Below are positions 3,335 through 48,307 of a stretch of DNA of 64,000 bases, piece by piece. The notes below the pieces were generated by a model that saw nothing but the letters and a program-made list of their open reading frames with translations, did not search any database and was not told where the DNA came from. Location: positions 1,382,077 through 1,446,076 of the forward strand of contig CBDDCD010000003.1 in assembly GCA_965226025.1 (NCBI GenBank), in the 5' to 3' direction. Position 1 is the stretch's first letter, and every line of letters begins with the position of its first letter. The stretch comes from Candidatus Moanibacter sp. (GTDB lineage: Bacteria > Verrucomicrobiota > Verrucomicrobiia > Opitutales > UBA2987). The translations under genes were made by a program, and so were the position numbers.

Positions 3335-3602
3335 CGGATGAAAGAACAGCAACGGATGGGGAAGGAAGGACGCTTCATCCTTGAGTCTTAGTCGTAAGCC
3401 TCGTCGTAAGCCTCGTCGTAAGCTTGGTCGAGGAAACTCGAATCGAGATAGTAAGCTGTGGTTACCCGATTTGATTCTTTGTCGCGAGCTTTGGCGTGAG
3501 CTTTGTCGATTGGGTTGGAGGACGATATCGCAATCGATTCGGGGGGAAACGAAGACGGGAGAGAGAAAACGCAACGGATGAAAGAACAGCAACGGATGGG
3601 GA
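3335..3602. repeat. Intergenic short-repeat cluster
   Basis: CGGATGAAAGAACAGCAACGGATGGGGA twice (~3335, ~3575); tandem GTCGTAAGCCTC x3 (3391-3424); TTTGTCGCGAGCTTT motif also at ~17800 and ~56900-57180. Confidence 0.65.
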
Positions 3603-8459: not shown

Positions 8460-8512
8460 TAGGAGGTGGGCCGTGGCCTCCGGACGCGGAACAAAAGCCC
8501 GGTTCTATGTTA

Positions 8513-10330
8513 GAGGCTGTCCCAAATCCGAGAGGATTTGGGTGGAAGCCTGATACCGATATCAATCTTCGTCACGTTATGTAGACCACGACATGCCTTC
8601 CGTCCTCGGTAGCTTACCTTTTATCCGTTATGCACCTTTCCAGCACCCTTCCTCTCGCTTTGAGTCGATAGTTCTCCCAAGGAAGCGCCTCTGACTCGAT
8701 TCTTGGATCCCTATGCCGCCTGCGTTGCCTCTTTCTCATGTTCTTGCGCAAGTCTCTGCGCGATTTTCCATAGATTGTGGGACAGAACCGACCAGGCCAC
8801 GCTAAGGTTACGGTTGTCAAAGCCTTTGCTGCGTATCTTGCCCCCGTGCCATCGGTTCTTGAGCACTCCGATCCGGCCTTCGGTGCTCCCTCGTCGTCGC
8901 TGCAACCGGACAAAGCGCGGCTCCTCCATCCGCTCCTTGAGCTCTTGTGGATTGCGGGGCGTAAGGGCGTCAAAAATCCCCTCTGCCTGGGAGCCGCTTG
9001 CTGGCCGCCTTCGAGGCATAGCCCCGATCCCCACTGATCGCTTCGATCTTCTCCTCTAAAGCGAAGCCCTTTTGCCTCTCCAGACTTTCCCAAAGCTGCT
9101 TCAATTCGCTCGGGGCCTGCCCCCCATACAGTTTCCAGTCCAACAGATATCCCTCTGCGCTCTCGCATAAATAAAGGGTGTTGCCAAACTCCACCTCCCG
9201 ATCTGCCTTGCCTCGCACGATGACGTCAATCTCAGGTTCGTAGGCGCTCAGGATCTTCTCCTCATTCTTCACCTGCCGCCCCCCTATGATCCGTTCGTGC
9301 GCCTGTTTCATGACCTGCGGTATCTGCTCTAACATACCATCCATTCGCTCGATGATTCGGCTCGCCTTCTTCTCGGTGTAATCGCTTTGCATCCACATAG
9401 CTTCCAATAAGTCACGGTGGCGAAGGGCATGGCCCTCAATCTTCTTGAGCAATAGCTTCATCCGCCGCAGGATCCCTTTACGCGCTTTGCCCGCCTCCCG
9501 GCGCCGACGCGCATGCGTCATCTCCAGGCACCGTTTGTTCATCTCCCGAGCCAATCCCTTTGCTCCCTGGGGCATGCGCTGTTTCATTCCCGCCTGCCGG
9601 ATCAGACTGATCGCCTTGAGCAGCGTTGCTCCCACATCCTTGAGCAAGACCCAGTCCACGGGCCAGTGGATGTTCGCTTCCAGGCAAGTGGCGTCGATCA
9701 GGCATTCCCTCGTATCGATCGGCTTCTCTAATCCTGCCTCACCACAATGTTCAGCATTGCCCACCACCTCGGTCATCCTTGCATGCAGCTGTCTCAGATA
9801 CGCTTCGTCGAAGAATTTCGAATCCCGTTCCAGACTGCTCTTCGATATTTTCCGGATCCCGTCTACCTCACGCACCCGGCAAAAATTAGCCAGAAGCTCA
9901 CTGCGTCCCAACTCCTGCGACAGACAACGAAAGGATATCCCTCCGAGTAAATGACGCACCACCTCCACCCGCAGCGCTTTTATCGCTCTTAGAGCGCGTC
10001 GCTCCCGATCCTTCCCTCCCGCTTCATCCCATCCTTCCAAGGCTTTTACGATCGCCTCCCTTTCCAGCGAGGAGTCGATCAAAACCCGGTCAATCCGCTC
10101 CATTGTTTCCAGAAACACGGTGTAGTCTTTGCATCGAATGACTGGAGTTAGGGCTGGACGCAGGAAGCTTTGTACGGCAATATTTTTCATGAGAAGGGCG
10201 TGCTTTGTATTTGACTAACGCAAGCATAAGCGCCCTTTTTCGCCGGATCGAGCTTTTTGCAGCTCTATCCGGCCTTTTTTTTGCCCATAACTCATTAAAA
10301 ATCAATTGTTTCCACCACTGGGACGGGCTC
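8513..10330 (-). mobile_element. IS5/ISNCY-like insertion sequence, copy 1 (1818 bp), 7-bp TSD TATGTTA
   Basis: Ends GAGGCTGTCCCA / GAGCCCGTCCCA (imperfect TIR); TATGTTA at 8506-8512 and 10331-10337; near-identical inverted copy at 46060-47876; sits between two inverted REPs. Confidence 0.9.
8711..10190 (-). pseudogene. DDE transposase of IS copy 1, one-base insertion frameshift near 8990
   Basis: Identical to the 492-aa protein of 46200..47678 up to ASKRL, then shifts frame (GGCTCCCAGG vs GGCTCCAGG). Confidence 0.85.
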
Positions 10331-24058: not shown

Positions 24059-24860
24059 TCAGACCGCCATATCCAACGGGCTAAGTGCTGGTGTTCATAA
24101 TTACGGTGACGTTTGTGGGAGCGCCATTGGGGGTAGTGCAAGGCGCCCAAACCCGGACGGGTCGGGGATCCCTTGCGCGTTTGGGCAACGCCGCAATACC
24201 CTCAATGCCGCCCCACCGCCTTGCGGCCTGGCGCTTTTGGCCTTGAGCCGCGTTAGCTTTGAGTCGCAGGGTTCGTACCTAGCCCACTCAAAGCCGCCTT
24301 GCTCAAGACCAGAATCGCCTAGGCAAACGCCATCGTAATTACGAACACCAGCACTAAGACTAGCGGCTCCGGGCTTCTGCATGACGTGAAGATAGATCTG
24401 TGTCGTTTCCAAATGCGCATGACCAAGAAGCTCCTGAACAGTGCGAATATCCACCCCCGCTTCGAGCAGATGGGTTGCGAATGAATGACGCAGGGCATGA
24501 GTGGTTACTCTCTTGCCGATGCCTGCCCCCTTTCCCAAACCGCACTACGACCTGACCTCGCTCAAGATCCACATCCTTGATCCTAAGGTGCACCAACTCA
24601 CTCACACGCAAGCCCGCTCCGTTTATGAAGAACCATCTGATCGCCTCTTTCCATCTGTCCAAGCACCATTGCGATGGAGACTTGTCCCGCGTGGCCCATT
24701 CCACGAATTCACGGGCCCAATCGCTCGTCGCCGACACACCTCGATTCGCACACCAAGAGAGGTACCAGCGAAGAGTGATCTGGTGGGAATCTTTCGTTCG
24801 AGGTGCGAGATCGGACCGATCCAGAATCTCCTTCCAGCGTGGAAAATAGACCGCCTTCAC
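24059..24860 (-). pseudogene. intI: Integron integrase, internally deleted twice and interrupted by a MITE
   Basis: GAGLRVSE..LRIKDVD, GKGG and [35 protein letters not shown]. Removing the MITE restores the C-terminal SLSPLDMAV*. Divergent from an attC array. Confidence 0.88.
24085..24354. mobile_element. 270-bp MITE with ~30-bp TIRs and TAA duplication, in the intI 3' end
   Basis: GTGCTGGTGTTCATAATTACGGTGACGTTTG / GTGCTGGTGTTCGTAATTACGATGGCGTTTG; TAA at 24082-24084 and 24355-24357. Confidence 0.85.
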
Positions 24861-24868
24861 TGAATTCC

Positions 24869-24898
24869 TATATAGTGAATATAAATTCACTATATCAA
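24869..24898 (-). promoter_or_regulatory. Candidate intI promoter overlapped by an 11-4-11 palindromic operator
   Basis: Minus strand TTGATA-N18-TATATA; ATATAGTGAAT-ATAA-ATTCACTATAT at 24870-24895. Confidence 0.5.
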
Positions 24899-25311: not shown

Positions 25312-25719
25312 ATGAGCCATCGCACCTACATTTGCCTTGAGTGCAGAACCAGCACCGGCAGAACCGCTCGATACGGAGACAGCTCCGATTCGGTCCGCTG
25401 CCCGGGTTGTCGAGAAAAGATGTGGAGTCTTTTTTGGAAGTCGCGAATACCGAAGAAGAAAGATGATAATGGTTGGAGAAGGTTGGCTCGGAAAGTCTAT
25501 TCTGAAGCACCTGATGTCGCCAAATACGCACAGCATCTGGAAGAGAAAGCGCAGAATCTTCAAGTACGAATTGAAAATGCGCGTAGAATGAAGAACTCTC
25601 TTAGTCGGGAGTCGAAAGTGAGGAAACTTCAGGCAAAGCAAGCGAGATTAATCCGGTCGAGAGATATACTCGTAGCTGAGACAAAACAAGCCGAACCAAG
25701 CAGTGGATCTAACCTGTAG
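25312..25719 (+). CDS. Cassette 1: hypothetical zinc-ribbon/coiled-coil protein
   Basis: CLEC...CPGC pairs followed by a basic helical tail; bounded by attI and attC1. Confidence 0.7.
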   Translation: MSHRTYICLECRTSTGRTARYGDSSDSVRCPGCREKMWSLFWKSRIPKKKDDNGWRRLARKVYSEAPDVAKYAQHLEEKAQNLQVRIENARRMKNSLSRESKVRKLQAKQARLIRSRDILVAETKQAEPSSGSNL

Positions 25720-25771
25720 TACTCGCGCGCTCGCACTACGGGTAGATCACTTTCAACGTTGGGAATAGAGG

Positions 25772-31943: not shown

Positions 31944-32122
31944 ACTTACTTCTTAGCGAGCACGGAAAGCTACAGTTGCTGTGACTCTGAGCACTGTGGG
32001 GCCTAACCAGCGCATCAAGTCGGACGCAGCCACGTACGGCCCCTAGGCTTTTTTCGGTGCACCATGCATCCGCCATCCGAGTTTTTCGGATTTGGGATGG
32101 CTTGGCTGCGCCGCTTATGCTA

Positions 32123-32160
32123 GAGGCTGTCCCAAATCCGAGAGGATTTGGGACAGCCTC
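32123..32160. mobile_element. 38-bp palindromic mini-element, second copy (opposite orientation)
   Basis: GAGGCTGTCCCAAATCC-GAGA-GGATTTGGGACAGCCTC; flanked by TATGCTA and TATTCTA. Confidence 0.8.
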
Positions 32161-32573
32161 TATTCTAACAATACTTTCGTCGCCCACAGGCGGGGCACGA
32201 TCTTCCGGAAACAGCGCCACCTGTTCGGGTCTTTCCCTGCCCTCTTCGAAAATCTCGATGCTCTTGCGCCACGCTTCGTGTTGGCTATCGTTGATCTCTC
32301 CAAGGTAGAGGACCTGTCTTTGGACCACCCGCCCCCCGCTGACACGCTTGTTCTCAACGATATTCCAATAGTAGTGCTCTTTGCCATCTTTGCGCCGACG
32401 ATTACACCTCAGAAACATGATGGCCCACCATTATACGAAAAAATCCCGCCCTGGGAAGAGCGTAGGTCTACACTACAGGCGGTTTTGCCAACCCACCTCT
32501 ACTGTTGATGCGCCTCCTGAGCCCTACTACCCCCGAAAAAAACCGTTTCGGAAGTTGAGTTGGTCAAGTAGGG
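32161..32573 (-). mobile_element. IS1634-family remnant (left end and first ~86 codons of transposase from 32418)
   Basis: MFLRCNRRRKDGKEHYYWNIVENKRVSGGRVVQRQVLYLGEINDSQ; the end abuts the 3' half of an attC. Confidence 0.8.
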
Positions 32574-32646
32574 CTAACCCGGAATCTCGCTCCGCTCGAT
32601 CCGGGTAGGTGATGGAGCACGTTAGCGAGAGAGGATTGAGGAAAGG

Positions 32647-34949: not shown

Positions 34950-35568
34950 TGCCGCCGTCACTGCGTTCAAGCGTTAGTGCGCCGAGCGAAGCGAGGCGCT
35001 TCTTATCCGGTGAATGTCCGGATGTTTCAAAGTAATAGCGAAACAGAAACTACCGAGTGTTGTCCCGCCGAGCGGGATCAGCTAAGTCATTAAAACGCGT
35101 GGACCGCGCTGACAGGTCGAAACCGGAAACCGTTGCTTCTGTGACGTGTGGAAGGATGGCGAAACGGCATATGCGAAGCGTACACAGGGAAGCATGCAGG
35201 CCGCAGAGGGTTCGCAGTCCTCTAAGGCAATTTAGCCCCGTAATGAGTGTAGAAGCAGGCGACGACGGCGTTAACGTGAGCGGAAGTCAGCACTCCACGG
35301 ATCGCAATGGCGAGATCAGTGGGGGCCTGTCGGGGTTCGAAGCCGTGGCATGTATGCAGAGAAGCGTTCTTGAACTCGGGAGAGCGCACGGGTTCCCGCA
35401 AGGGTATGGCTATGCAACCAACCGGAGGATAGACAGATGACCCGTGTGCAGTCAGACCGGCCCATAGTACTCGGAGACGGTAGGACCGATCACGAGGGGA
35501 AGGGGCGGGCTGAGCGGTTAAGTGAGCAAAGCACCCACGCTTGGGGAAGGAGTGTCCCGAAAAAGAGC

Positions 35569-36211
35569 GTGTCACGCACCCTGCTCGAACTGAGAGAGAA
35601 AGCGAAGCGGGAACCGAAGCATCGGTTCCGTTCATTGTGTCGAGAGATCAACCTGCCGATGTTGTATGAGAGCTTTGGAGAGCTCAAACGTAGCGCTGCG
35701 CCCGGAGTGGACGGCGAGACGGTGGCGAGCTACGAAGGCGATCTGGAGAACCGACTGAGGCAGCTGTTGGAGCGACTGGTGAACAAGACATACCGGGCGC
35801 AGAAGGTGAGAAGGCGGCATATCCCCAAGGGGAAGGGAAAGACCCGACCCCTTGGCATACCCGCCTTGGAGGATAAGATCGTCCAGCAAGCGGCCAGTCG
35901 ATTGCTGCAAGCAATCTACGAAGTCGACTTTCTGGATGTAAGCAAGGGGTATCGGCCGAACCGTGGGGCCCGCGATGCGAGCCAGGAACTACGCGAGCAA
36001 CTCTTTCTGGAAAGAGTGCACTGGGTAGTGGAGGCGGACATCGAGGGTTTCTTCGAGAAGGTCGATCATGACTGGCTGGAGCGCATGCTGGAGCAGCGGG
36101 TGGACGATAGAGCGTTCATGCGTCTGATCCGCAAGTGGCTCAAAGCTGGAGTTCTGGAAGAAGCCGGAGAGGTGATCCACCCTGCGACGGGAACGCCTCA
36201 AGGTGGGATAC
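35569..36211 (+). pseudogene. ltrA: Group II intron RT/maturase, 5' half
   Basis: APGVDG, RRRHIPK...RPLGIP..EDK, EADIEGFF..VDH and GTPQGG; start uncertain (GTG 35569). Confidence 0.9.
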
Positions 36212-37833
36212 TGACGCCTCGTACACAAAAGGTAACTTTCGCCGGGCGGACCTTCCGGTTCGGCTGAAACTGGGATCGAATGGTGTATGGTCAGGGTGTC
36301 GCTGTCTACGATAATCTCTTTGGTGACGAGCCGGATGATCTTCTGGCGCTCGGTCACGCAAAGAGTCTGCGCCGAGTGCTGCAATTGGGCAAGAAAACCT
36401 TCGATGGAAGCGTTCATTCTGTGCAAGCGGCTGTTTTCCAAGGCCTGCAGCCTAAGGCTCTCCATCTCTTTTTCGAGGGCGCTCCGGCGCTCTCTGAGTT
36501 TCGGAGAACGTTCCCTGAGCTCAGCCAGCCCGAGCAAATCCTCTTGGTAGGCATCCAAAAGCTTGTTGATCCGGGCATCCATGCGCTTTATTTCGCCTTC
36601 GAGGTGGGCTTTGCGTTGCTCTACCGGGTCGCTGGTAAGGCATTCGCGCAAGCGGCGGTCGATCTCGGCGCGCACCAACTCCGGGCAATGAAGCAGCCGA
36701 ATAACCTCCATCCATACCAGTTCATCGAGGTAATCCTGGCGAATGGGCCGGCAATCGCAGGCAGGTCCTCGAAGGTGGCGCCATTTGTCCGAGCCCAGGC
36801 ACCGGTAATAGCGCACTTGTCTGCGGCTTGTCCTGGTCGAGGTAAGATAGAGTCCGTATCCACATTTTCCGCACACCAGAAGTCCTTGCAGCAACGTGGG
36901 CTTTTTCGTTTTTCGCGCCGACAAGCGTTTGTTTTCCTGCAGTCTCTCTTGGGCCATCTCGAAAGTCTGCACAGGGATCACGGCCGGAACCGGCACCTCG
37001 ATCCATTCCTCGCGGCTGGTTTCACGGTTAGCTCCCGAACGCGGGGAAAAACCGCCCTTTTGACGTAGAGGCCGGGTAATCCTTTTGCGCTCGGCCCGCT
37101 CGGTTTTTCCGAAGCAGGCCGTCCCTTTGTAAGCGGGATTCCTCAACATGCCCCAAACCGTCGATCTCTCCCAGGGGCTCTTTCCAAACCGGGTCGGAAT
37201 ACCTTCCTGGTTGAGTTCGCGCGCGATCGCTCCTATGCTCCAAAGCTCCCGCGTAAAAAAGTCGAAGACTTTCCGGACCACTTCGGCTTCCGCCTCGATC
37301 ACCGTATAGTAGGCCTCCGAAGTATCGGTTTTTCGGATATACCGGTAGCCATAAGGCGCTCCCGACAACACATTGACACATCCGCTTCGAGCGCGATGCC
37401 TTTTGCCGCGACGGGTTCGCTCCGCGATCTGGGCTCGTTCATATTCGGCGATCATTCCCTGAAACTGTACCAACAGCCGATCCTCCGGACTGTCGCCGCC
37501 AGCGGATTTGAGGAAAACCGTTTCCACTCCGCGTCGGTTAAACTCCTCGAGCAACAGCACCTGATAGGCGTATTTTCGGCTGAGCCGATCCGGGCCATAG
37601 ACCAGGACTGTCTCCAGCACCCCCTCACTTGCCAGATCGCGAAGACGCTCCAGCCCAGGACGATTCAAGACGCTCCCGCTGTAGCCCTCATCCTCGAAAA
37701 TCCAGTCTTTGGCTACGACGTAGTTATGGCTTTGGGCATATTCGGACAGCAGCGCCGTCTGACTGGCAATCGTGTTTTGTTGCCTCTGCCGATCCGAGGA
37801 TACTCGTGCATAGATGGCCGCATTCTTCTTCAT
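35989..37833 (-). CDS. Large serine recombinase (resolvase, recombinase, zinc-ribbon and coiled-coil domains)
   Basis: AIYARVSS, DEGYSG...RPGL, DRLSR, LLQGLLVCGKCG and YYRC. Reads past the element end into the RT antisense strand. Confidence 0.93.
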   Translation of the reverse strand: MKKNAAIYARVSSDRQRQQNTIASQTALLSEYAQSHNYVVAKDWIFEDEGYSGSVLNRPGLERLRDLASEGVLETVLVYGPDRLSRKYAYQVLLLEEFNRRGVETVFLKSAGGDSPEDRLLVQFQGMIAEYERAQIAERTRRGKRHRARSGCVNVLSGAPYGYRYIRKTDTSEAYYTVIEAEAEVVRKVFDFFTRELWSIGAIARELNQEGIPTRFGKSPWERSTVWGMLRNPAYKGTACFGKTERAERKRITRPLRQKGGFSPRSGANRETSREEWIEVPVPAVIPVQTFEMAQERLQENKRLSARKTKKPTLLQGLLVCGKCGYGLYLTSTRTSRRQVRYYRCLGSDKWRHLRGPACDCRPIRQDYLDELVWMEVIRLLHCPELVRAEIDRRLRECLTSDPVEQRKAHLEGEIKRMDARINKLLDAYQEDLLGLAELRERSPKLRERRSALEKEMESLRLQALENSRLHRMNASIEGFLAQLQHSAQTLCVTERQKIIRLVTKEIIVDSDTLTIHHSIPVSAEPEGPPGESYLLCTRRQYPTLRRSRRRVDHLSGFFQNSSFEPLADQTHERSIVHPLLQHALQPVMIDLLEETLDVRLHYPVHSFQKELLA

Positions 37834-37981
37834 GGTTTGGCTCTCCATTGTTCAGGTTGTCAGCATGACGCAGGCCGGGAACCAACACCCGGTAAACTTG
37901 CGCCAACTTCTCCTCAGCGTAGCGATCGTAACGGGCGGCAAGCTCGATACGCAGGCTGCGCTGAGGGTTGGATTTAGCCAT
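37724..37981 (-). CDS. Small hypothetical protein of the recombinase element
   Basis: ATG overlaps the upstream gene's end; its 3' part overlaps the recombinase start. Confidence 0.5.
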   Translation of the reverse strand: MAKSNPQRSLRIELAARYDRYAEEKLAQVYRVLVPGLRHADNLNNGEPNHEEECGHLCTSILGSAEATKHDCQSDGAAVRICPKP

Positions 37982-38282
37982 GGATACTCTCCTGCAAAAA
38001 AGCCCGTAAAGCCTCGGCTGTGAGATCGCTGATACGTTGGTTTCTTCGCCGGGCGGTAGAACGAACCTCCTGGATCAAGCCTGGGGGCAATCTCACCGTG
38101 AAAACCTCTTTCGATTCGGGCGCAGAAAGGGGCTGAGCGGCGGTTTGCGCCCGTCGAAGGTAACGATGCGCTTGACGCGAAGATACCTCGAACCGGGCGA
38201 TCAGAGACGATACAACCTCGCCGGAAGTGGCATTTTTCCGTAAAAGCTGTATCGCCGTATTCACCCGCCGGGTTTGTTCCAT
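37974..38282 (-). CDS. HTH plus ribbon-helix-helix DNA-binding protein
   Basis: LIARFEVSSRQAHRYL (HTH-like) and VFTVRLPPGLIQEVR..ARR....ISDL..EALRAFL (RHH-like). Confidence 0.75.
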   Translation of the reverse strand: MEQTRRVNTAIQLLRKNATSGEVVSSLIARFEVSSRQAHRYLRRAQTAAQPLSAPESKEVFTVRLPPGLIQEVRSTARRRNQRISDLTAEALRAFLQESIHG

Positions 38283-38310
38283 AGCCGATGCTCTGCCCAC
38301 TATGACTTAT

Positions 38311-38326
38311 AGATAATACATTATCT
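38311..38326. promoter_or_regulatory. Palindromic operator candidate upstream of the recombinase operon
   Basis: AGATAAT-AC-ATTATCT, just downstream of minus-strand TTGCCA. Confidence 0.5.
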
Positions 38327-38435
38327 GACATGGCAACTCGTTTTTCTGGATTTCTGTTTCAACCTAGCCGAACGAAACCGCTCGAATCCAATTATCCGGC
38401 GAAAGCTAAAGTTGCCTTTTGTGTACGAGGCGTCA

Positions 38436-39100
38436 TTTCGCCGGTGTTAGCGAATATCTATCTGCATTACGTCTTGGACCTGTGGATAGAAAAGAGAGTG
38501 CCCCGACGGATCCGGGGGTGTAAGGTCTACATGCGCTATGCTGACGATTTTGTCGTTGGTTTCGAATATGGAGCAGATGCGCAGTGGTTCTATGAGGAAC
38601 TGCCCAAACGTCTGGCCAGGTTCGGCCTGAACATGGCGGCCGACAAGAGCGGAATCCTCCGCTTCAGTCGCTGTGATGTGAGAGGAAGCGGATGTTTCAC
38701 CTTCCTCGGGTTTGAGTTCTATTGGGCCCATACGCGAAACGGAAAGCTGACGGTGAAGCGGCGAACCTCAAAGAAGAAGTTCAAGAGCTCGCTGTTGAAC
38801 CTGAAAGAGTGGCTGAGGAAGAACCGCAGTCGCCCGCTCAAGGAGCTTGCCGTCACGCTGCGGCGCAAAAACCAGGGGTACTTCAAATACTACGGGGTCA
38901 TTGGGAACTCGTATATGTTAAAGCGCTATTGGCAGGAGAGCCGACGGATCATCTTCCGTGGTCTCAATCGCCGCAGCCAGCGCAAAAGCTACAATTGGGT
39001 TGGTTTTGAACAGATGTGGAAAACACTGGCTATACCGACCCCCAGAATCATAGAAAGACCCTACTGCCGACACCACCAATGGACTCTCTCCTATACATGA
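38436..39100 (+). pseudogene. ltrA: Group II intron RT/maturase, 3' half
   Basis: SPVLANIYLH, RYADDF, FTFLGF and domain X GYFKYY; no endonuclease domain. Confidence 0.9.
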
Positions 39101-39238
39101 ACAACGCCTCGCTGTCTCCACTGCGCGATCGCTCAGAGGAGCCCTGTGCGAGAAAACCGCACGCAGGGATCTGCGAGGGGGCCGTCGGGCAACCGGCGGT
39201 CCTACCTTGATGCCCCGGAAAGGTTAGTAGATGGCACA

Positions 39239-39913: not shown

Positions 39914-40084
39914 AATAGTGAGCGCTAACAAATGAATGTACTGGATTTTCACTCGCTCCGCTCCTAAAAACCAGTGATTCAAATCGTTATGCGGCATCGA
40001 TAACTCGGTGGAGTCTTTGAGCAAACTGAGAAGTTGGCTCGCACTTGCGAACGCTCCGGCGGGCGGCGCTTCCAAAATTAGTCC

Positions 40085-41239: not shown

Positions 41240-41407
41240 AACTGACGGCTTGAGTGGCGGTTTAGTACGCCAAGCGCAGAGAATGCTTTTGCCTGCGCAC
41301 TTTGAACGCGACATGGCAAACTTTCTGGATCGGCAGCAGGATTCCGATGTAGAGTCTACGTTCAACGACGCTAAAGTTCCCAGAGGGCCGCTGCTGCCGC
41401 CTAACAA

Positions 41408-41876
41408 GGTAAGGATTAGAAACCGATCCGAAGATTCGGTTCTAATCCCTGGTTCATGAAGCCGCGGGTAAAAGGGGAATGGTTCAGAGGGCCCGGAGGT
41501 GATAAGCGAGGGGAAAGGAGCCTTGGAGTGGGAGGAATGGAAGAGGAAGCCGAAGTGCCTGAGCTTGACGAAGCCCTTGGGCAGGACGTGCTGGAGGAAA
41601 CGGCGCATGTACTCAAGAGCCAGTACTCGCGCACCTCCTCTTCGCTGATATCCTCCAGGGCTTTGCAACAGAAGTTCTGCAGTTGCCGCAGGCCCCGCAG
41701 GTAACTCTGGATGGTTCTTATTGCATAGCTTTTCAGTTTTAGATCTGTTACATATTGATCGTATAGATCGGCGTTCATGGTATCTTCCTTTCATTTGATG
41801 ATTTAACCTTGTCGGGTGAAAGATACCGATCTGCATAAATCGCCTTAAACTGCCGCGTAGCAGCTTACTTGAACAA
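41408..41876 (-). mobile_element. Internally deleted IS91-like element (integrase N-terminus fused to a Y2 transposase fragment) in attC16
   Basis: MNADLYDQY..DLKLKSYAIRTIQSYL (integrase SAM-like) joined to RRFLQHVLPKGFVKLRHFGFL; AACAA on both sides; CAAG at the ori-like end. Confidence 0.8.
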
Positions 41877-42660
41877 GGTAAGGATTAGAAGCCGAGCCGA
41901 AGGTTCGGTTCTAATGCCTGGTTCATGAAGTCGCGGGTAAAAGGGGAATGGTTCAGAAGGCCCTGAGGTGATAAGCGAGGAGAAGTAGAAGCGGGGGTAT
42001 GAGGAAAGGTAAAGGAAGCAGGTAGAAGCAGAGTGGTAGGGTTCTGAAGAAGGGGGAAATGGGGGAATTCGGGTCGATAGGTGTAGTGAGGGCATAGTGA
42101 GACGGGCACGTGCTGCGATGGAATCGCGGCGCGTGGAGGAGGAAGTGAGTTGGAAGAGGTGCTTGAGCTGGAAACAGACTCAGCCGGTATCGGGAATGAT
42201 CAGGGGAGGGCTGCGAGAAGGCATGAATCGGATCCACTGCATGGGGAGCCGACAGCGAGGACAGCGCAGAGGTTTGGGTTTTATGGGCGGAGTTGGTCGG
42301 GCCGTGGATGCAGGCAGGAGCTCGTAGAGGACGCAGATCAGTTGCCTGATTTTTTGCAGAGGAACTGTGAAGTTGGGCGAGAGGAAGCCGAAGTGCCTGA
42401 GTTTGACGAAGCCCTTGGGGAGGACGTGCTGGAGAAAACGGCGGATGAACTCGAGAGCCGGTAGAGAGAGCTTGCGCGATCGGCGCGAACCGACCTTTCG
42501 GTATTTGAAGATAACCTCCTGGCCGTCGTAAGAGACCACGCGCGCCTCTGAGATGGCGACCCGGAAAAGATAGGCACCGAGGTACTTGAGGGCACGACGA
42601 CCATCGCCGACGCTTTTACAGTGCACGACCCAGGGTTTTTGCCAGACCTGTGGTTTCTGA
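41877..42660 (-). mobile_element. Second tandem IS91-like element, only the transposase C-terminal part retained
   Basis: KPWVVH, YLGAYLFRVAISEAR, EFIRRFLQHVLPKGFVKLRHFGFL and CPRC; same terminal hairpin as 41408. Confidence 0.82.
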
Positions 42661-46059: not shown

Positions 46060-47876
46060 GAGCCCGTCCCAGTGGTGGAAACAATTGATTTTTAATGAGT
46101 TATGGGCAAAAAAAAGGCCGGATAGAGCTGCAAAAAGCTCGATCCGGCGAAAAAGGGCGCTTATGCTTGCGTTAGTCAAATACAAAGCACGCCCTTCTCA
46201 TGAAAAATATTGCCGTACAAAGCTTCCTGCGTCCAGCCCTAACTCCAGTCATTCGATGCAAAGACTACACCGTGTTTCTGGAAACAATGGAGCGGATTGA
46301 CCGGGTTTTGATCGACTCCTCGCTGGAAAGGGAGGCGATCGTAAAAGCCTTGGAAGGATGGGATGAAGCGGGAGGGAAGGATCGGGAGCGACGCGCTCTA
46401 AGAGCGATAAAAGCGCTGCGGGTGGAGGTGGTGCGTCATTTACTCGGAGGGATATCCTTTCGTTGTCTGTCGCAGGAGTTGGGACGCAGTGAGCTTCTGG
46501 CTAATTTTTGCCGGGTGCGTGAGGTAGACGGGATCCGGAAAATATCGAAGAGCAGTCTGGAACGGGATTCGAAATTCTTCGACGAAGCGTATCTGAGACA
46601 GCTGCATGCAAGGATGACCGAGGTGGTGGGCAATGCTGAACATTGTGGTGAGGCAGGATTAGAGAAGCCGATCGATACGAGGGAATGCCTGATCGACGCC
46701 ACTTGCCTGGAAGCGAACATCCACTGGCCCGTGGACTGGGTCTTGCTCAAGGATGTGGGAGCAACGCTGCTCAAGGCGATCAGTCTGATCCGGCAGGCGG
46801 GAATGAAACAGCGCATGCCCCAGGGAGCAAAGGGATTGGCTCGGGAGATGAACAAACGGTGCCTGGAGATGACGCATGCGCGTCGGCGCCGGGAGGCGGG
46901 CAAAGCGCGTAAAGGGATCCTGCGGCGGATGAAGCTATTGCTCAAGAAGATTGAGGGCCATGCCCTTCGCCACCGTGACTTATTGGAAGCTATGTGGATG
47001 CAAAGCGATTACACCGAGAAGAAGGCGAGCCGAATCATCGAGCGAATGGATGGTATGTTAGAGCAGATACCGCAGGTCATGAAACAGGCGCACGAACGGA
47101 TCATAGGGGGGCGGCAGGTGAAGAATGAGGAGAAGATCCTGAGCGCCTACGAACCTGAGATTGACGTCATCGTGCGAGGCAAGGCAGATCGGGAGGTGGA
47201 GTTTGGCAACACCCTTTATTTATGCGAGAGCGCAGAGGGATATCTGTTGGACTGGAAACTGTATGGGGGGCAGGCCCCGAGCGAATTGAAGCAGCTTTGG
47301 GAAAGTCTGGAGAGGCAAAAGGGCTTCGCTTTAGAGGAGAAGATCGAAGCGATCAGTGGGGATCGGGGCTATGCCTCGAAGGCGGCCAGCAAGCGGCTCC
47401 AGGCAGAGGGGATTTTTGACGCCCTTACGCCCCGCAATCCACAAGAGCTCAAGGAGCGGATGGAGGAGCCGCGCTTTGTCCGGTTGCAGCGACGACGAGG
47501 GAGCACCGAAGGCCGGATCGGAGTGCTCAAGAACCGATGGCACGGGGGCAAGATACGCAGCAAAGGCTTTGACAACCGTAACCTTAGCGTGGCCTGGTCG
47601 GTTCTGTCCCACAATCTATGGAAAATCGCGCAGAGACTTGCGCAAGAACATGAGAAAGAGGCAACGCAGGCGGCATAGGGATCCAAGAATCGAGTCAGAG
47701 GCGCTTCCTTGGGAGAACTATCGACTCAAAGCGAGAGGAAGGGTGCTGGAAAGGTGCATAACGGATAAAAGGTAAGCTACCGAGGACGGAAGGCATGTCG
47801 TGGTCTACATAACGTGACGAAGATTGATATCGGTATCAGGCTTCCACCCAAATCCTCTCGGATTTGGGACAGCCTC
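46060..47876 (+). mobile_element. IS5/ISNCY-like insertion sequence, copy 2 (1817 bp), no matching TSD
   Basis: Same ends as copy 1; flanks TAACTA and TAGATA. Confidence 0.9.
46200..47678 (+). CDS. DDE transposase (IS5/ISNCY-like), intact
   Basis: IDATCLEANIHWPVD, VRGKA...VEFG, GDRGY and R..TEGRIGVLK. Confidence 0.88.
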   Translation: MKNIAVQSFLRPALTPVIRCKDYTVFLETMERIDRVLIDSSLEREAIVKALEGWDEAGGKDRERRALRAIKALRVEVVRHLLGGISFRCLSQELGRSELLANFCRVREVDGIRKISKSSLERDSKFFDEAYLRQLHARMTEVVGNAEHCGEAGLEKPIDTRECLIDATCLEANIHWPVDWVLLKDVGATLLKAISLIRQAGMKQRMPQGAKGLAREMNKRCLEMTHARRRREAGKARKGILRRMKLLLKKIEGHALRHRDLLEAMWMQSDYTEKKASRIIERMDGMLEQIPQVMKQAHERIIGGRQVKNEEKILSAYEPEIDVIVRGKADREVEFGNTLYLCESAEGYLLDWKLYGGQAPSELKQLWESLERQKGFALEEKIEAISGDRGYASKAASKRLQAEGIFDALTPRNPQELKERMEEPRFVRLQRRRGSTEGRIGVLKNRWHGGKIRSKGFDNRNLSVAWSVLSHNLWKIAQRLAQEHEKEATQAA

Positions 47877-48307
47877 TAGATAACTTTCCCTTGTCGAATC
47901 AGGATATCGAGCGCGCGCAGAGTTTCGTCAAGTGGAGTTTCGGAATCCCAACTGTGAAGGAGGTAGAGATCGATGTGGTCGGTCTGCAGGCGCTTCAGGC
48001 TCCGCTCGATCTCCCTCATGATATGGTAGGCGGATGAGCCCAGGTCATTGGGGAGGCCTCCCGTAGGACTGTGCACTTTGCTCGTAATGACGAGATCGTC
48101 ACGCCGACCTTTAATGGCCTTGCCCAGCACAGTTTCGGACCAGCCTTGGCCGTAGATATTGGCGCAGTCCATGAAGTTGATGCCGTGATCAATGGCACAC
48201 TCGATCGTTTTTCTGGCGACACTTTCATCGCGGGTTCCACGAAATGCGGTACCGAGACAGAGTCGGGAGACCTTGAGGCCCGTGTTTCCGAAGCGTGTGT
48301 ATTTCAC
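47877..48307 (-). pseudogene. Aldo/keto reductase truncated by IS copy 2
   Basis: GLKVSRLCLGT, DCANIYG and SLKRLQTDHIDLY; ends at RQGKVI at the IS end. Confidence 0.85.

Follow-up and report, generated by a model that had tools for sequence, protein, structure and literature searches.

The reverse transcriptase (RT) gene of a group II intron from Candidatus Moanibacter sp. is interrupted, within its most conserved motif, by a 2224-bp insert that carries a gene for a large serine recombinase (LSR). The insert lies at positions 36212-38435 of the 64,000-nucleotide stretch of contig CBDDCD010000003.1 that was analyzed, referred to below as the window. From the comparison of this insert with its relatives, we consider it very probable that it belongs to a family of insertion sequence (IS)-like elements of about 2.2 kb, which are moved by their own LSR into the DNA that encodes an RT motif of group II introns. 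In this view, the element is apparently a widespread parasite that lives on another mobile element.

The insert includes only three open reading frames (ORFs), all on the minus strand, and no further cargo. These are arranged as three coupled genes, namely a 108-aa protein with helix-turn-helix and ribbon-helix-helix features (HTH-RHH), an 85-aa small ORF, and then the LSR. The inverted ends (36212-36242 and 38405-38435) are 31 nt long in an inverted-repeat search and 94% complementary, with 2 mismatches. The original prediction for this DNA, made from the letters alone, had described a cargo-free three-gene unit of 2224 bp with 28-bp inverted ends and one mismatch; this description is correct for those 28 nt, and the repeat extends to 31. 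Also as predicted, both ends joined in silico give a palindrome centered on AT. Across the family, the first ~26 nt of the terminal repeat are conserved among 50 unique ends, and the elements have the features that define an insertion sequence, i.e., a length of 2.2-2.3 kb, three genes, inverted repeats of 26-31 nt, and at most five near-identical copies per genome.

The recombinase has the domains expected of an LSR. Pfam profiles match Resolvase (PF00239, E = 6e-35, profile positions 1-143 of 145), Recombinase (PF07508, 2e-21) and Zn_ribbon_recom (PF13408, 1.5e-12). In the N-terminal resolvase domain, Y13, R15, V16, S17 and S18 are invariant across 24 family members; C326, C329, C350 and C364 are likewise invariant in 24 members, in a protein with both a recombinase domain and a zinc ribbon. 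Translation probably starts at the ATG at 37833 rather than at 37848, because a 92%-identical relative (L006) has a stop codon just upstream.

The interrupted gene belongs to a group II intron, as judged from ribozyme domains, RVT_1 and GIIM domains in the encoded protein, and a GTGCG 5' end. Rfam models for domains D1-D4 (RF02005, 35083-35345, 83 bits) and D5/D6 (RF00029, 39137-39211, 41.7 bits) both match above their gathering scores, and homology with another copy of this intron, located elsewhere in the genome, begins at GTGCG, at position 34977. The RT gene is broken between PQGGI and (I/L)SP, and both halves are free of stop codons. Removal of the insert keeps the frame, giving G-I-L-S-P with YADD downstream. 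The restored ORF is 479 aa long from the ATG at 35437, or 435 aa from a GTG at codon 45; the latter is the length that had been predicted for an RT rejoined by exact removal, with PQGG..SP and YADD. At the left junction (36205-36218) the sequence is GGGATACTGACGCC, and at the right junction (38429-38442) it is GGCGTCATTTCGCC.

The second copy of the intron (L005, G000:C1:1870139-1874309) provides an empty site for comparison. Its 5' 1238 nt are 98.5% identical to the window intron and its 3' 722 nt are 91.8% identical. The copy is unoccupied, with the sequence GGGATAATTTCGCC and the center AT (Ile ATT) at the site. The insert is the only difference between the occupied and the empty site, and there is no target duplication. 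The target center had been predicted to be CT; the empty paralogue shows AT instead. Altogether, four free RT sites are found in this genome, two with AT centers and two with CT. Besides L005, they are in RT genes or fragments at C1:890905, C1:1358993 and C3:3090786, all unoccupied, and read PQGGPLSPLLSN twice (CT center) and PQGGSISPLLSN (AT center).

The empty copy also has features of its own. Its RT is intact, with 480 codons, whereas a further group II intron (Rfam group-II-D1D4-4) interrupts its domain V region, at ~3386-3600 of the reverse complement. This inner intron begins with GTGCG exactly where the homology to the window intron ends; by its sequence, the nested arrangement looks like a twintron.

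An LSR search of one-genome-per-species contigs, confirmed by tblastn, yielded at least 535 relatives, and the best 80 of these, with 56-92% identity, were studied. Their hosts are members of the Verrucomicrobiota, Acidobacteriota, Nitrospirota, Desulfobacterota, Alpha- and Gammaproteobacteria, Planctomycetota, Bacteroidota, Gemmatimonadota and Armatimonadota, and multiple copies in one genome are frequent; plasmid records add Actinobacteria to the carriers. The test that the original prediction had set beforehand was whether homologues are flanked by RT genes split at the same codon. When the intact RT of the C1 copy was used as a tblastn query, RT pieces were found in 65 of the 80 loci, with breaks at RT residues ~257-261. 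Usually, one piece stops near residue 261 where the element begins, and the other resumes near 257 beyond its opposite end.

For the analysis of the junctions, the inverted ends were located in each locus, and the register was set by the conserved repeat block. Clean ends were obtained in 66 of the 80 loci; 12 were excluded for poor repeats or odd length, and 2 had no anchor. Hand adjustments were made for the arm of L019 and the register of L062 (1 nt each, in the latter because the target resembles the arm), and L006 and L076 were reassigned. The RT motif is present at the junction in 56 of the 66 clean loci, which bears out the predicted minimal, IS-like LSR element that targets PQGG..SP. 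In 46 loci, the N-terminal half of the RT lies on one side and the C-terminal half on the other, split at the identical codon, with the LSR in the sense (30 loci) or antisense (16 loci) direction. The split motif in these 46 is ..(T/S/V)PQG(G/A)(V/P/A) on the N-side and (I/V/L/A/T)SP(L/V/I)L(A/S)N on the C-side. Because the relatives occupy the same codon, the choice of site is far beyond chance. In six further clean loci the same RT half is found on both sides; all six are on contigs of 2.5-3.1 kb and are probably mis-joined repeats. Four others have RT on their sole readable or recognizable flank, and one has no flank.

Finished plasmids from four cultured carriers, Bradyrhizobium elkanii USDA 76, Mesorhizobium sp. 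AR02, Streptomyces sp. and Rhodococcus sp., have a matching layout, at 47-58% identity. On these plasmids the RefSeq annotation reads, in order, reverse transcriptase domain-containing protein, CopG-family RHH, recombinase family protein, and RT or maturase-specific domain. The Streptomyces record has a hypothetical protein in the position of the CopG-family RHH, and for both Streptomyces and Rhodococcus the RT annotation is limited to the maturase-side fragment. More distant relatives, of ~40% identity (P. putida pDK1, Microvirga), occur in other contexts. Separately, a metagenome contig from run X14 matches window positions 37746-38427 and represents a ~93% relative with an arm like that of L006. 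The DNA beyond its arm encodes S-P-Q-G-G-I in the reverse complement, i.e., the same RT site in another intron.

Copies of the element within one genome are 98.5-100% identical, and their 400-nt RT flanks have no detectable mutual similarity. For example, three 100%-identical copies (L066, L068 and L069) occupy three different introns, in both orientations; another three (L043-L045), also 100% identical, reside in two introns and one permease gene; and one closed chromosome (OY762456.1) carries five copies (L057-L064). On the evidence of these sequences, the element has moved recently and independently between unrelated introns, and near-identical copies in unrelated introns rule out one old insertion carried by a single intron lineage. 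As a separate observation, the 400-nt N flank of L064 is that of L059 (100%) and its C flank is that of L057 (99.75%); L064 is either a hybrid intron or a rearrangement between element copies.

These data bear on an explanation in which the element entered an intron once, in an ancestor, and has spread since only as intron cargo through composite retrohoming. Introns capable of retrohoming tolerate cargo in domain IV, and one genome (G001) does contain three full elements in identical intron copies, all in one shared orientation. The intron in question has 15 copies in G001, and 9 of the 12 copies retrieved are empty, with an AT center. The G001 pattern by itself cannot separate composite retrohoming from repeated site-specific insertion. 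Nevertheless, spread by cargo transport alone is scarcely credible, given the empty copies of the same intron, the identical elements that occupy introns with no detectable similarity at the nucleotide level, either way round, as well as non-RT genes, and junction dinucleotides that segregate as integration events predict (see below). G001 also contains a locus (L102, G001:C24:140109-143609) in which the usual RT site has only the first ~34-40 nt of an element end, and unrelated DNA follows; this insertion has been truncated or rearranged.

To define the crossover, the junction dinucleotide was taken as that between the flank and the first base of the arm; its two bases are the first and second of the codon that follows GG-(V/I/P). 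We compared the two junctions in 47 insertions, namely the 46 loci above and the window. The dinucleotides are equal in 28 (AT in 20, GT in 4, GC in 2, CT in 1, TT in 1) and unequal in 19, i.e., the window and 18 of the 46 relatives. In each of these 19 unequal pairs a single base differs, never both. By comparison, random pairing of N- and C-sides gives a mean of 5.2 double differences, and zero in only 0.03% of 10,000 shuffles. On contigs of at least 100 kb there are 19 equal and 13 unequal pairs, the latter including the isolate Bradyrhizobium erythrophlei GAS478 and the window. The junction sequences are consistent with a 2-bp central exchange without target duplication, as in other LSR systems, with one dinucleotide at each junction. 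Bxb1 and phiC31 have been reported to require identical central dinucleotides in the two partner sites; in these 19 of the 47 insertions, such identity is not found.

The clearest indication of how unequal junctions arise comes from one genome (G002), which contains four copies of one intron with identical 506-nt N flanks. The empty copy has the core AT. The sense insertion has CT on the N-side and AT on the C-side; of two antisense insertions, one has AG on the N-side and AT on the C-side, and the other has AT on the N-side and AG on the C-side. The same element, 99.8-99.9% identical, is also present in a Leu-CTG intron, with CT at both junctions. As read from these sequences, an element with a CT core met a target with an AT core, and both reciprocal products are present: in each product, one junction has the dinucleotide of the target, and the other has that of the element or its complement. 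Given how serine recombinases are established to cleave DNA, we infer a 2-nt staggered exchange in which a one-base mismatch is ligated and the heteroduplex is resolved by replication. This scheme also fixes the position of the crossover, and the CT/AT pair in the window fits it.

That the element tolerates a core mismatch had been proposed in the original prediction. The tolerance itself is upheld by the unequal junctions and by the G002 products. The reason given for it, a CT target, is not, since the empty paralogue has AT. The occurrence of both orientations fits a palindromic AT core, which is unable to set orientation. The second base of the core is mostly T, and changes of the first base would yield Ile, Val, Leu or Phe codons, which are found or may be tolerated at this RT position.

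Unequal dinucleotides might also result from sequencing or assembly errors, from later mutation, or from homologous recombination that swaps flanks. Most loci are from metagenome-assembled genomes, the two flanks of L064 indicate that flank swapping does occur, and in L113 the junction arm is short of one G in a run of Gs, which resembles a read error. However, such processes are an unlikely source of the overall pattern. Every unequal pair differs at a single base where random pairing would give several double differences; 13 of the 19, among them one from an isolate genome and that of the window, are on contigs no shorter than 100 kb; and the empty site and three insertions in G002, within identical flanks, show the reciprocal patterns that integration predicts. 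In addition, the two intron copies in the window genome have diverged by 1.5%, so that a chance change at the core base is improbable.

Insertions outside RT genes provide information on what the recombinase recognizes. The non-RT hosts include a tyrosine-recombinase gene (L006, which at 92% nucleotide identity over 2211 nt is the closest relative of the window element among those listed), an IS21-like transposase gene, a MacB-like permease gene and a PP2C-like gene. A weight matrix was built from 44 unique RT sites and evaluated against a background of 200,000 50-mers. Of the seven non-RT sites with both flanks, four score in the top 0.1% of the background and one in the top ~1%. These scores argue that recognition acts on DNA, with the RT motif as the DNA that the LSR prefers.

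The two small genes are candidates for accessory or regulatory functions. The small ORF overlaps both of its neighbors: its ATG overlaps the stop codon of the HTH-RHH gene, and the LSR start lies, in another frame, within its 3' part. Its motif is present in 52 of the 66 clean loci. In an alignment of 24 members, the N-terminal ~38 aa are conserved, with D19, R20, K25, Y30 and L33 invariant; no match was found in Pfam or NCBIfam. A model of the complex between the LSR and residues 1-45 of the small ORF scores 0.71, compared with 0.06 for the best of three controls. Of 80 solved complexes, 58 reached the mark applied to this score, as did 2 of 110 mismatched pairs; this calibration is approximate because custom alignments were used. 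At least 74% of the contacts are shared between model runs, and the predicted local distance difference test (pLDDT) score of the partner is at least 65. The modeled contacts are between LSR residues 369-399 and 485-527, i.e., both feet of the coiled coil together with the final strand, and small-ORF residues 8-36. Directionality factors of phage LSRs bind at the base of the coiled coil. The model suggests that the small protein binds the LSR at this same place, in the manner of a directionality factor.

A motif search recovered the HTH-RHH protein in 62 of the 66 clean loci, and nine columns are invariant among 25 aligned members. Pfam assigns RHH_1 in 11 of these 25 and several HTH families in 2-5 members each, and RefSeq names the homologues CopG-family RHH. 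By its sequence, the protein is likely a regulator of the operon, with the 16-bp palindrome listed in Table 1 as a candidate operator.

An unusual feature of the LSR gene is that its reading frame has no stop codon within the element. In the window it reads through the inverted repeat and 74 codons of the flanking RT DNA, to a stop at 35989. A stop codon is absent between the LSR start and the element end in all 66 clean loci as well as the window. The frames terminate 2 to 1856 nt beyond the element, in flanking DNA, except in 7 loci where the contig ends before a stop; in RefSeq, LSR coding sequences likewise overlap those of the neighboring RT. In a modeled circle, the LSR frame would close 23-119 nt past the arm. 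The tail read in such a circle would have 20-38 residues (10 in L019, phase 0), with a recurring ..NAKGNF.F.R.. pattern. Positions +28 to +48 of the left end show stronger conservation than the mirror positions of the right end; the entropies by codon position are 1.27/1.01/1.55 versus 1.69/1.92/1.69. This conservation could have either coding or a DNA site as its source.

The proposed cycle of the element is as follows. The LSR would excise the element as a circle, in which the inverted ends of ~26-31 nt meet and create an attP-like site that is palindromic. Through an exchange that is conservative, staggered by 2 nt and free of target duplication, the LSR would then integrate the circle into a DNA site of ~50 bp that encodes the RT motif T-P-Q-G-G-(V/I/P) followed by (I/V/L)-S-P-L-L-(A/S)-N, with the exchange between the two parts. 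A one-base difference in the core is tolerated, such that one junction keeps the dinucleotide of the target and the other that of the element. Insertion would inactivate the RT/maturase of the intron, and precise excision would restore the RT.

A number of observations weigh against this interpretation. Metagenome-assembled genomes are the source of most relatives, and their repeats can be joined wrongly. The junction count excludes 14 of the 80 loci for poor ends, with RT pieces still present in 10 of them; 9 of the 66 clean loci lie outside RT genes; and two of the seven scored non-RT sites have no likeness to the RT site. Complexes of the SPbeta LSR with its directionality factor are in the PDB, and the result for the small ORF may partly reflect likeness to those. 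A promoter scan found no sigma-70-like promoter on the minus strand of the element, and the host may use promoters of other types. In the contigs of four metagenome runs there was no circle and no join across the element, and contigs drop rare forms; one metagenome contig, from run X1, spans both junctions of the window insertion intact, with 4 differences over 2.7 kb. Lastly, the element is present as a single copy in the window genome despite the four free RT sites, one of them in a 99% paralogue. Two joints found among these contigs (36241 to 37753 and 37174 to 37286, with sides of 21 and 32 letters) are both within the element and resemble relatives from other organisms.

The window copy may, on this evidence, be dormant or tightly repressed. 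It could also be a dead fossil that inactivates one intron copy while the family at large is mobile, which would account for the single copy, the intact insertion in the metagenome contig, and the lack of a joined form among the contigs. We regard this as rather unlikely. The three ORFs of the window copy are open, the Resolvase profile is covered in full, the family-invariant residues are present, and the ends differ by only 2 mismatches in 31 nt; furthermore, rare excision would be invisible in contigs.

Since exact excision would give back an intact RT frame, the element might instead be a domesticated developmental or regulatory switch that turns the RT on, like skin in sigK or the fdxN element excised by XisF. 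XisF is the second-best NCBIfam match of the LSR, far under the cut-off (101.9 vs 375 bits), and identity with XisF was rejected on this basis. A family that is multi-copy, near-identical in unrelated introns, inserted in both orientations and also in non-RT genes, and distributed over many phyla behaves as a selfish element, and a domesticated function is very improbable.

A more comprehensive reading joins all of these elements, and we offer it tentatively, as a possibility somewhat short of an even chance. According to this reading, the elements would be an undescribed IS family, the first built on an LSR, and obligate parasites of group II introns across at least seven phyla, which home to the DNA of the RT active site. 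Tolerance of a one-base core difference would let insertion and excision swap the core, rewrite the I/V/L codon of the RT, and adapt the element to new intron lineages. The element would have its own directionality factor, the stopless LSR would have a tail that differs between the integrated and the circular state, and multiplication through intron retrohoming may occur as well.

The family shares features with several known systems. As in Tn4451/Tn4453 (TnpX) and Tn5397 (TndX), an LSR would serve as the transposase, without target duplication, and a circle with target-like joined ends is proposed here; a PDB search with the LSR matched the TnpX N-terminal domain at E = 2.9e-07. The TnpX and TndX transposons carry resistance or conjugation cargo and have a GA core, whereas the element described here is a cargo-free 2.2 kb, with long inverted ends, an AT-type core (AT, GT or CT), and a long, specific RT target. 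The order of Resolvase, Recombinase and zinc ribbon with coiled coil is the same as in the serine integrases of phages and integrative and conjugative elements (ICEs), such as Bxb1, phiC31, A118 and SPbeta SprA/SprB. The best PDB match is SPbeta YokA/SprA (E = 2e-13, residues 53-516), and the small partner is modeled at the coiled-coil base, the binding place reported for directionality factors. Unlike phage and ICE integrases, the recombinase here is found outside a phage or ICE, in a multi-copy element with a near-palindromic attP-like site, insertions in both orientations, and one-base core tolerance.

SCCmec CcrA, CcrB and CcrC are similarly LSRs that move a cassette at one conserved gene end, but they differ in cargo, target (rlmH) and host range; identity with Ccr was rejected, as CcrB, the best NCBIfam match (residues 4-474), gives 117 bits against a cut-off of 900. 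Like IS607, the element is a serine-recombinase insertion sequence without target duplication. Membership in the IS607 family was also discarded, in view of the inverted repeats, the specific target, and a match to NF033518 of 38 bits against a cut-off of 110, over the catalytic part only. Twintrons and IStrons likewise consist of one selfish element nested in another, and the L005 copy is itself intron-invaded; in the present case, by contrast, the invading element consists of DNA, encodes its own recombinase, targets an RT-coding motif rather than an RNA structure, and would inactivate the intron protein. The abstracts of PMC6188088 and PMC4058570 describe IS607 elements as having no terminal inverted repeats, minimal target specificity, and a DNA-binding domain N-terminal to the catalytic domain. 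The LSR here has 540 aa with C-terminal DNA-binding domains, and the element has inverted repeats of 26-31 nt and a specific target.

According to a passage of Durrant et al. 2022 (PMC10083194), DUF4368 is common in the multi-targeting clade of LSRs. This domain is absent from the Pfam matches of the LSR at E up to 0.01, which sets it apart from a TnpX/TndX-type recombinase. A literature search, with ISfinder and the supplementary LSR-target tables of Durrant et al. 2022 outside its scope, returned no description of a serine-recombinase element that targets RT genes. The term 'reverse transcriptase' does not occur in the main text of PMC10083194; its supplementary tables may already contain these LSRs.

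The features of the window element and its host intron are listed in Table 1.

Table 1. Features of the element and its host intron in the window (positions are those of the window).
Feature	Position	Strand	Basis or remark
Host group II intron, ~2.0 kb without the insert	34977..39211	+	Starts GTGCG at 34977; 3' end approximate
Intron RT, N-terminal half, ends ...TGTPQGGI	35437..36210	+	ORF; RVT_1 profile positions 1-127/205
Junction dinucleotide CT, RT N-side (crossover core)	36211..36212	.	Register from family alignment of ends
Terminal inverted repeat, LSR-proximal, half of attP-like site	36213..36242	.	Inverted-repeat search; within LSR reading frame
Large serine recombinase, ~540 codons within the element	36213..37833	-	Pfam; start inferred from L006
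Small ORF, 85 aa, candidate directionality or accessory factor	37724..37981	-	Alignment of 24 members; complex model
HTH-RHH protein of 108 aa, starts at GTG, candidate regulator or accessory DNA-binding protein	37974..38300	-	Motif search, alignment, Pfam
Perfect 16-bp palindrome (7-bp arms, 2-bp spacer), candidate operator	38311..38326	.	11-26 nt upstream of HTH-RHH start
Terminal inverted repeat, HTH-RHH-proximal, other attP-like half	38405..38434	.	Inverted-repeat search; family conservation
Junction dinucleotide AT, RT C-side	38435..38436	.	First two bases of Ile/Leu codon in ..GG-I-(I/L)-SP
RT C-terminal half (..SPVLANIYL.., YADD, maturase X domain)	38437..39100	+	RVT_1 positions 124-205, GIIM

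The original prediction had also proposed a nesting of integron, attC, intron and recombinase element. Elsewhere in the window, a frameshifted or shortened intI-like tyrosine recombinase is encoded at 24101-24890 on the minus strand, with a partial TIGR02249 match below the cut-off, and downstream of it is a run of short ORFs on the same strand. The only IntI above the NCBIfam cut-off is on another contig (C2) and has one internal TAA. Pairs of inverse-core and core sites with internal inverted repeats, located between short ORFs at ~25709-25765, 32574-32620 and 39925-39995, are attC-like by eye. Four palindromic hairpin repeats of ~51 nt, similar to repetitive extragenic palindromic (REP) sequences, are found at 2377-2427, 8503-8553, 32113-32163 and 47829-47879. 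At 41403-42463, duplicated blocks (113 nt at 93% and 84 nt at 92%) overlap ORFs that resemble the N-terminus of a tyrosine recombinase or IS91-associated integrase, which suggests decayed tandem copies of another mobile element.

The element appears to be a DNA parasite specialized on a retroelement. Its RT target is conserved because the intron cannot change the RT active site; it is also dispensable to the cell, present in multiple copies, and carried on plasmids and between genomes. The family constitutes a compact natural system, with an LSR, a candidate directionality factor of ~40 aa, an RHH protein and a target of ~50 bp, and cultured carriers exist. It provides natural evidence for exchange by a serine recombinase across one-base core heterology, which bears on the rule of dinucleotide identity and on the use of these enzymes in genome engineering. 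For group II introns, insertion of such elements would explain some of the 'split' RT or maturase genes annotated in many genomes, and adds a force that acts on intron populations.

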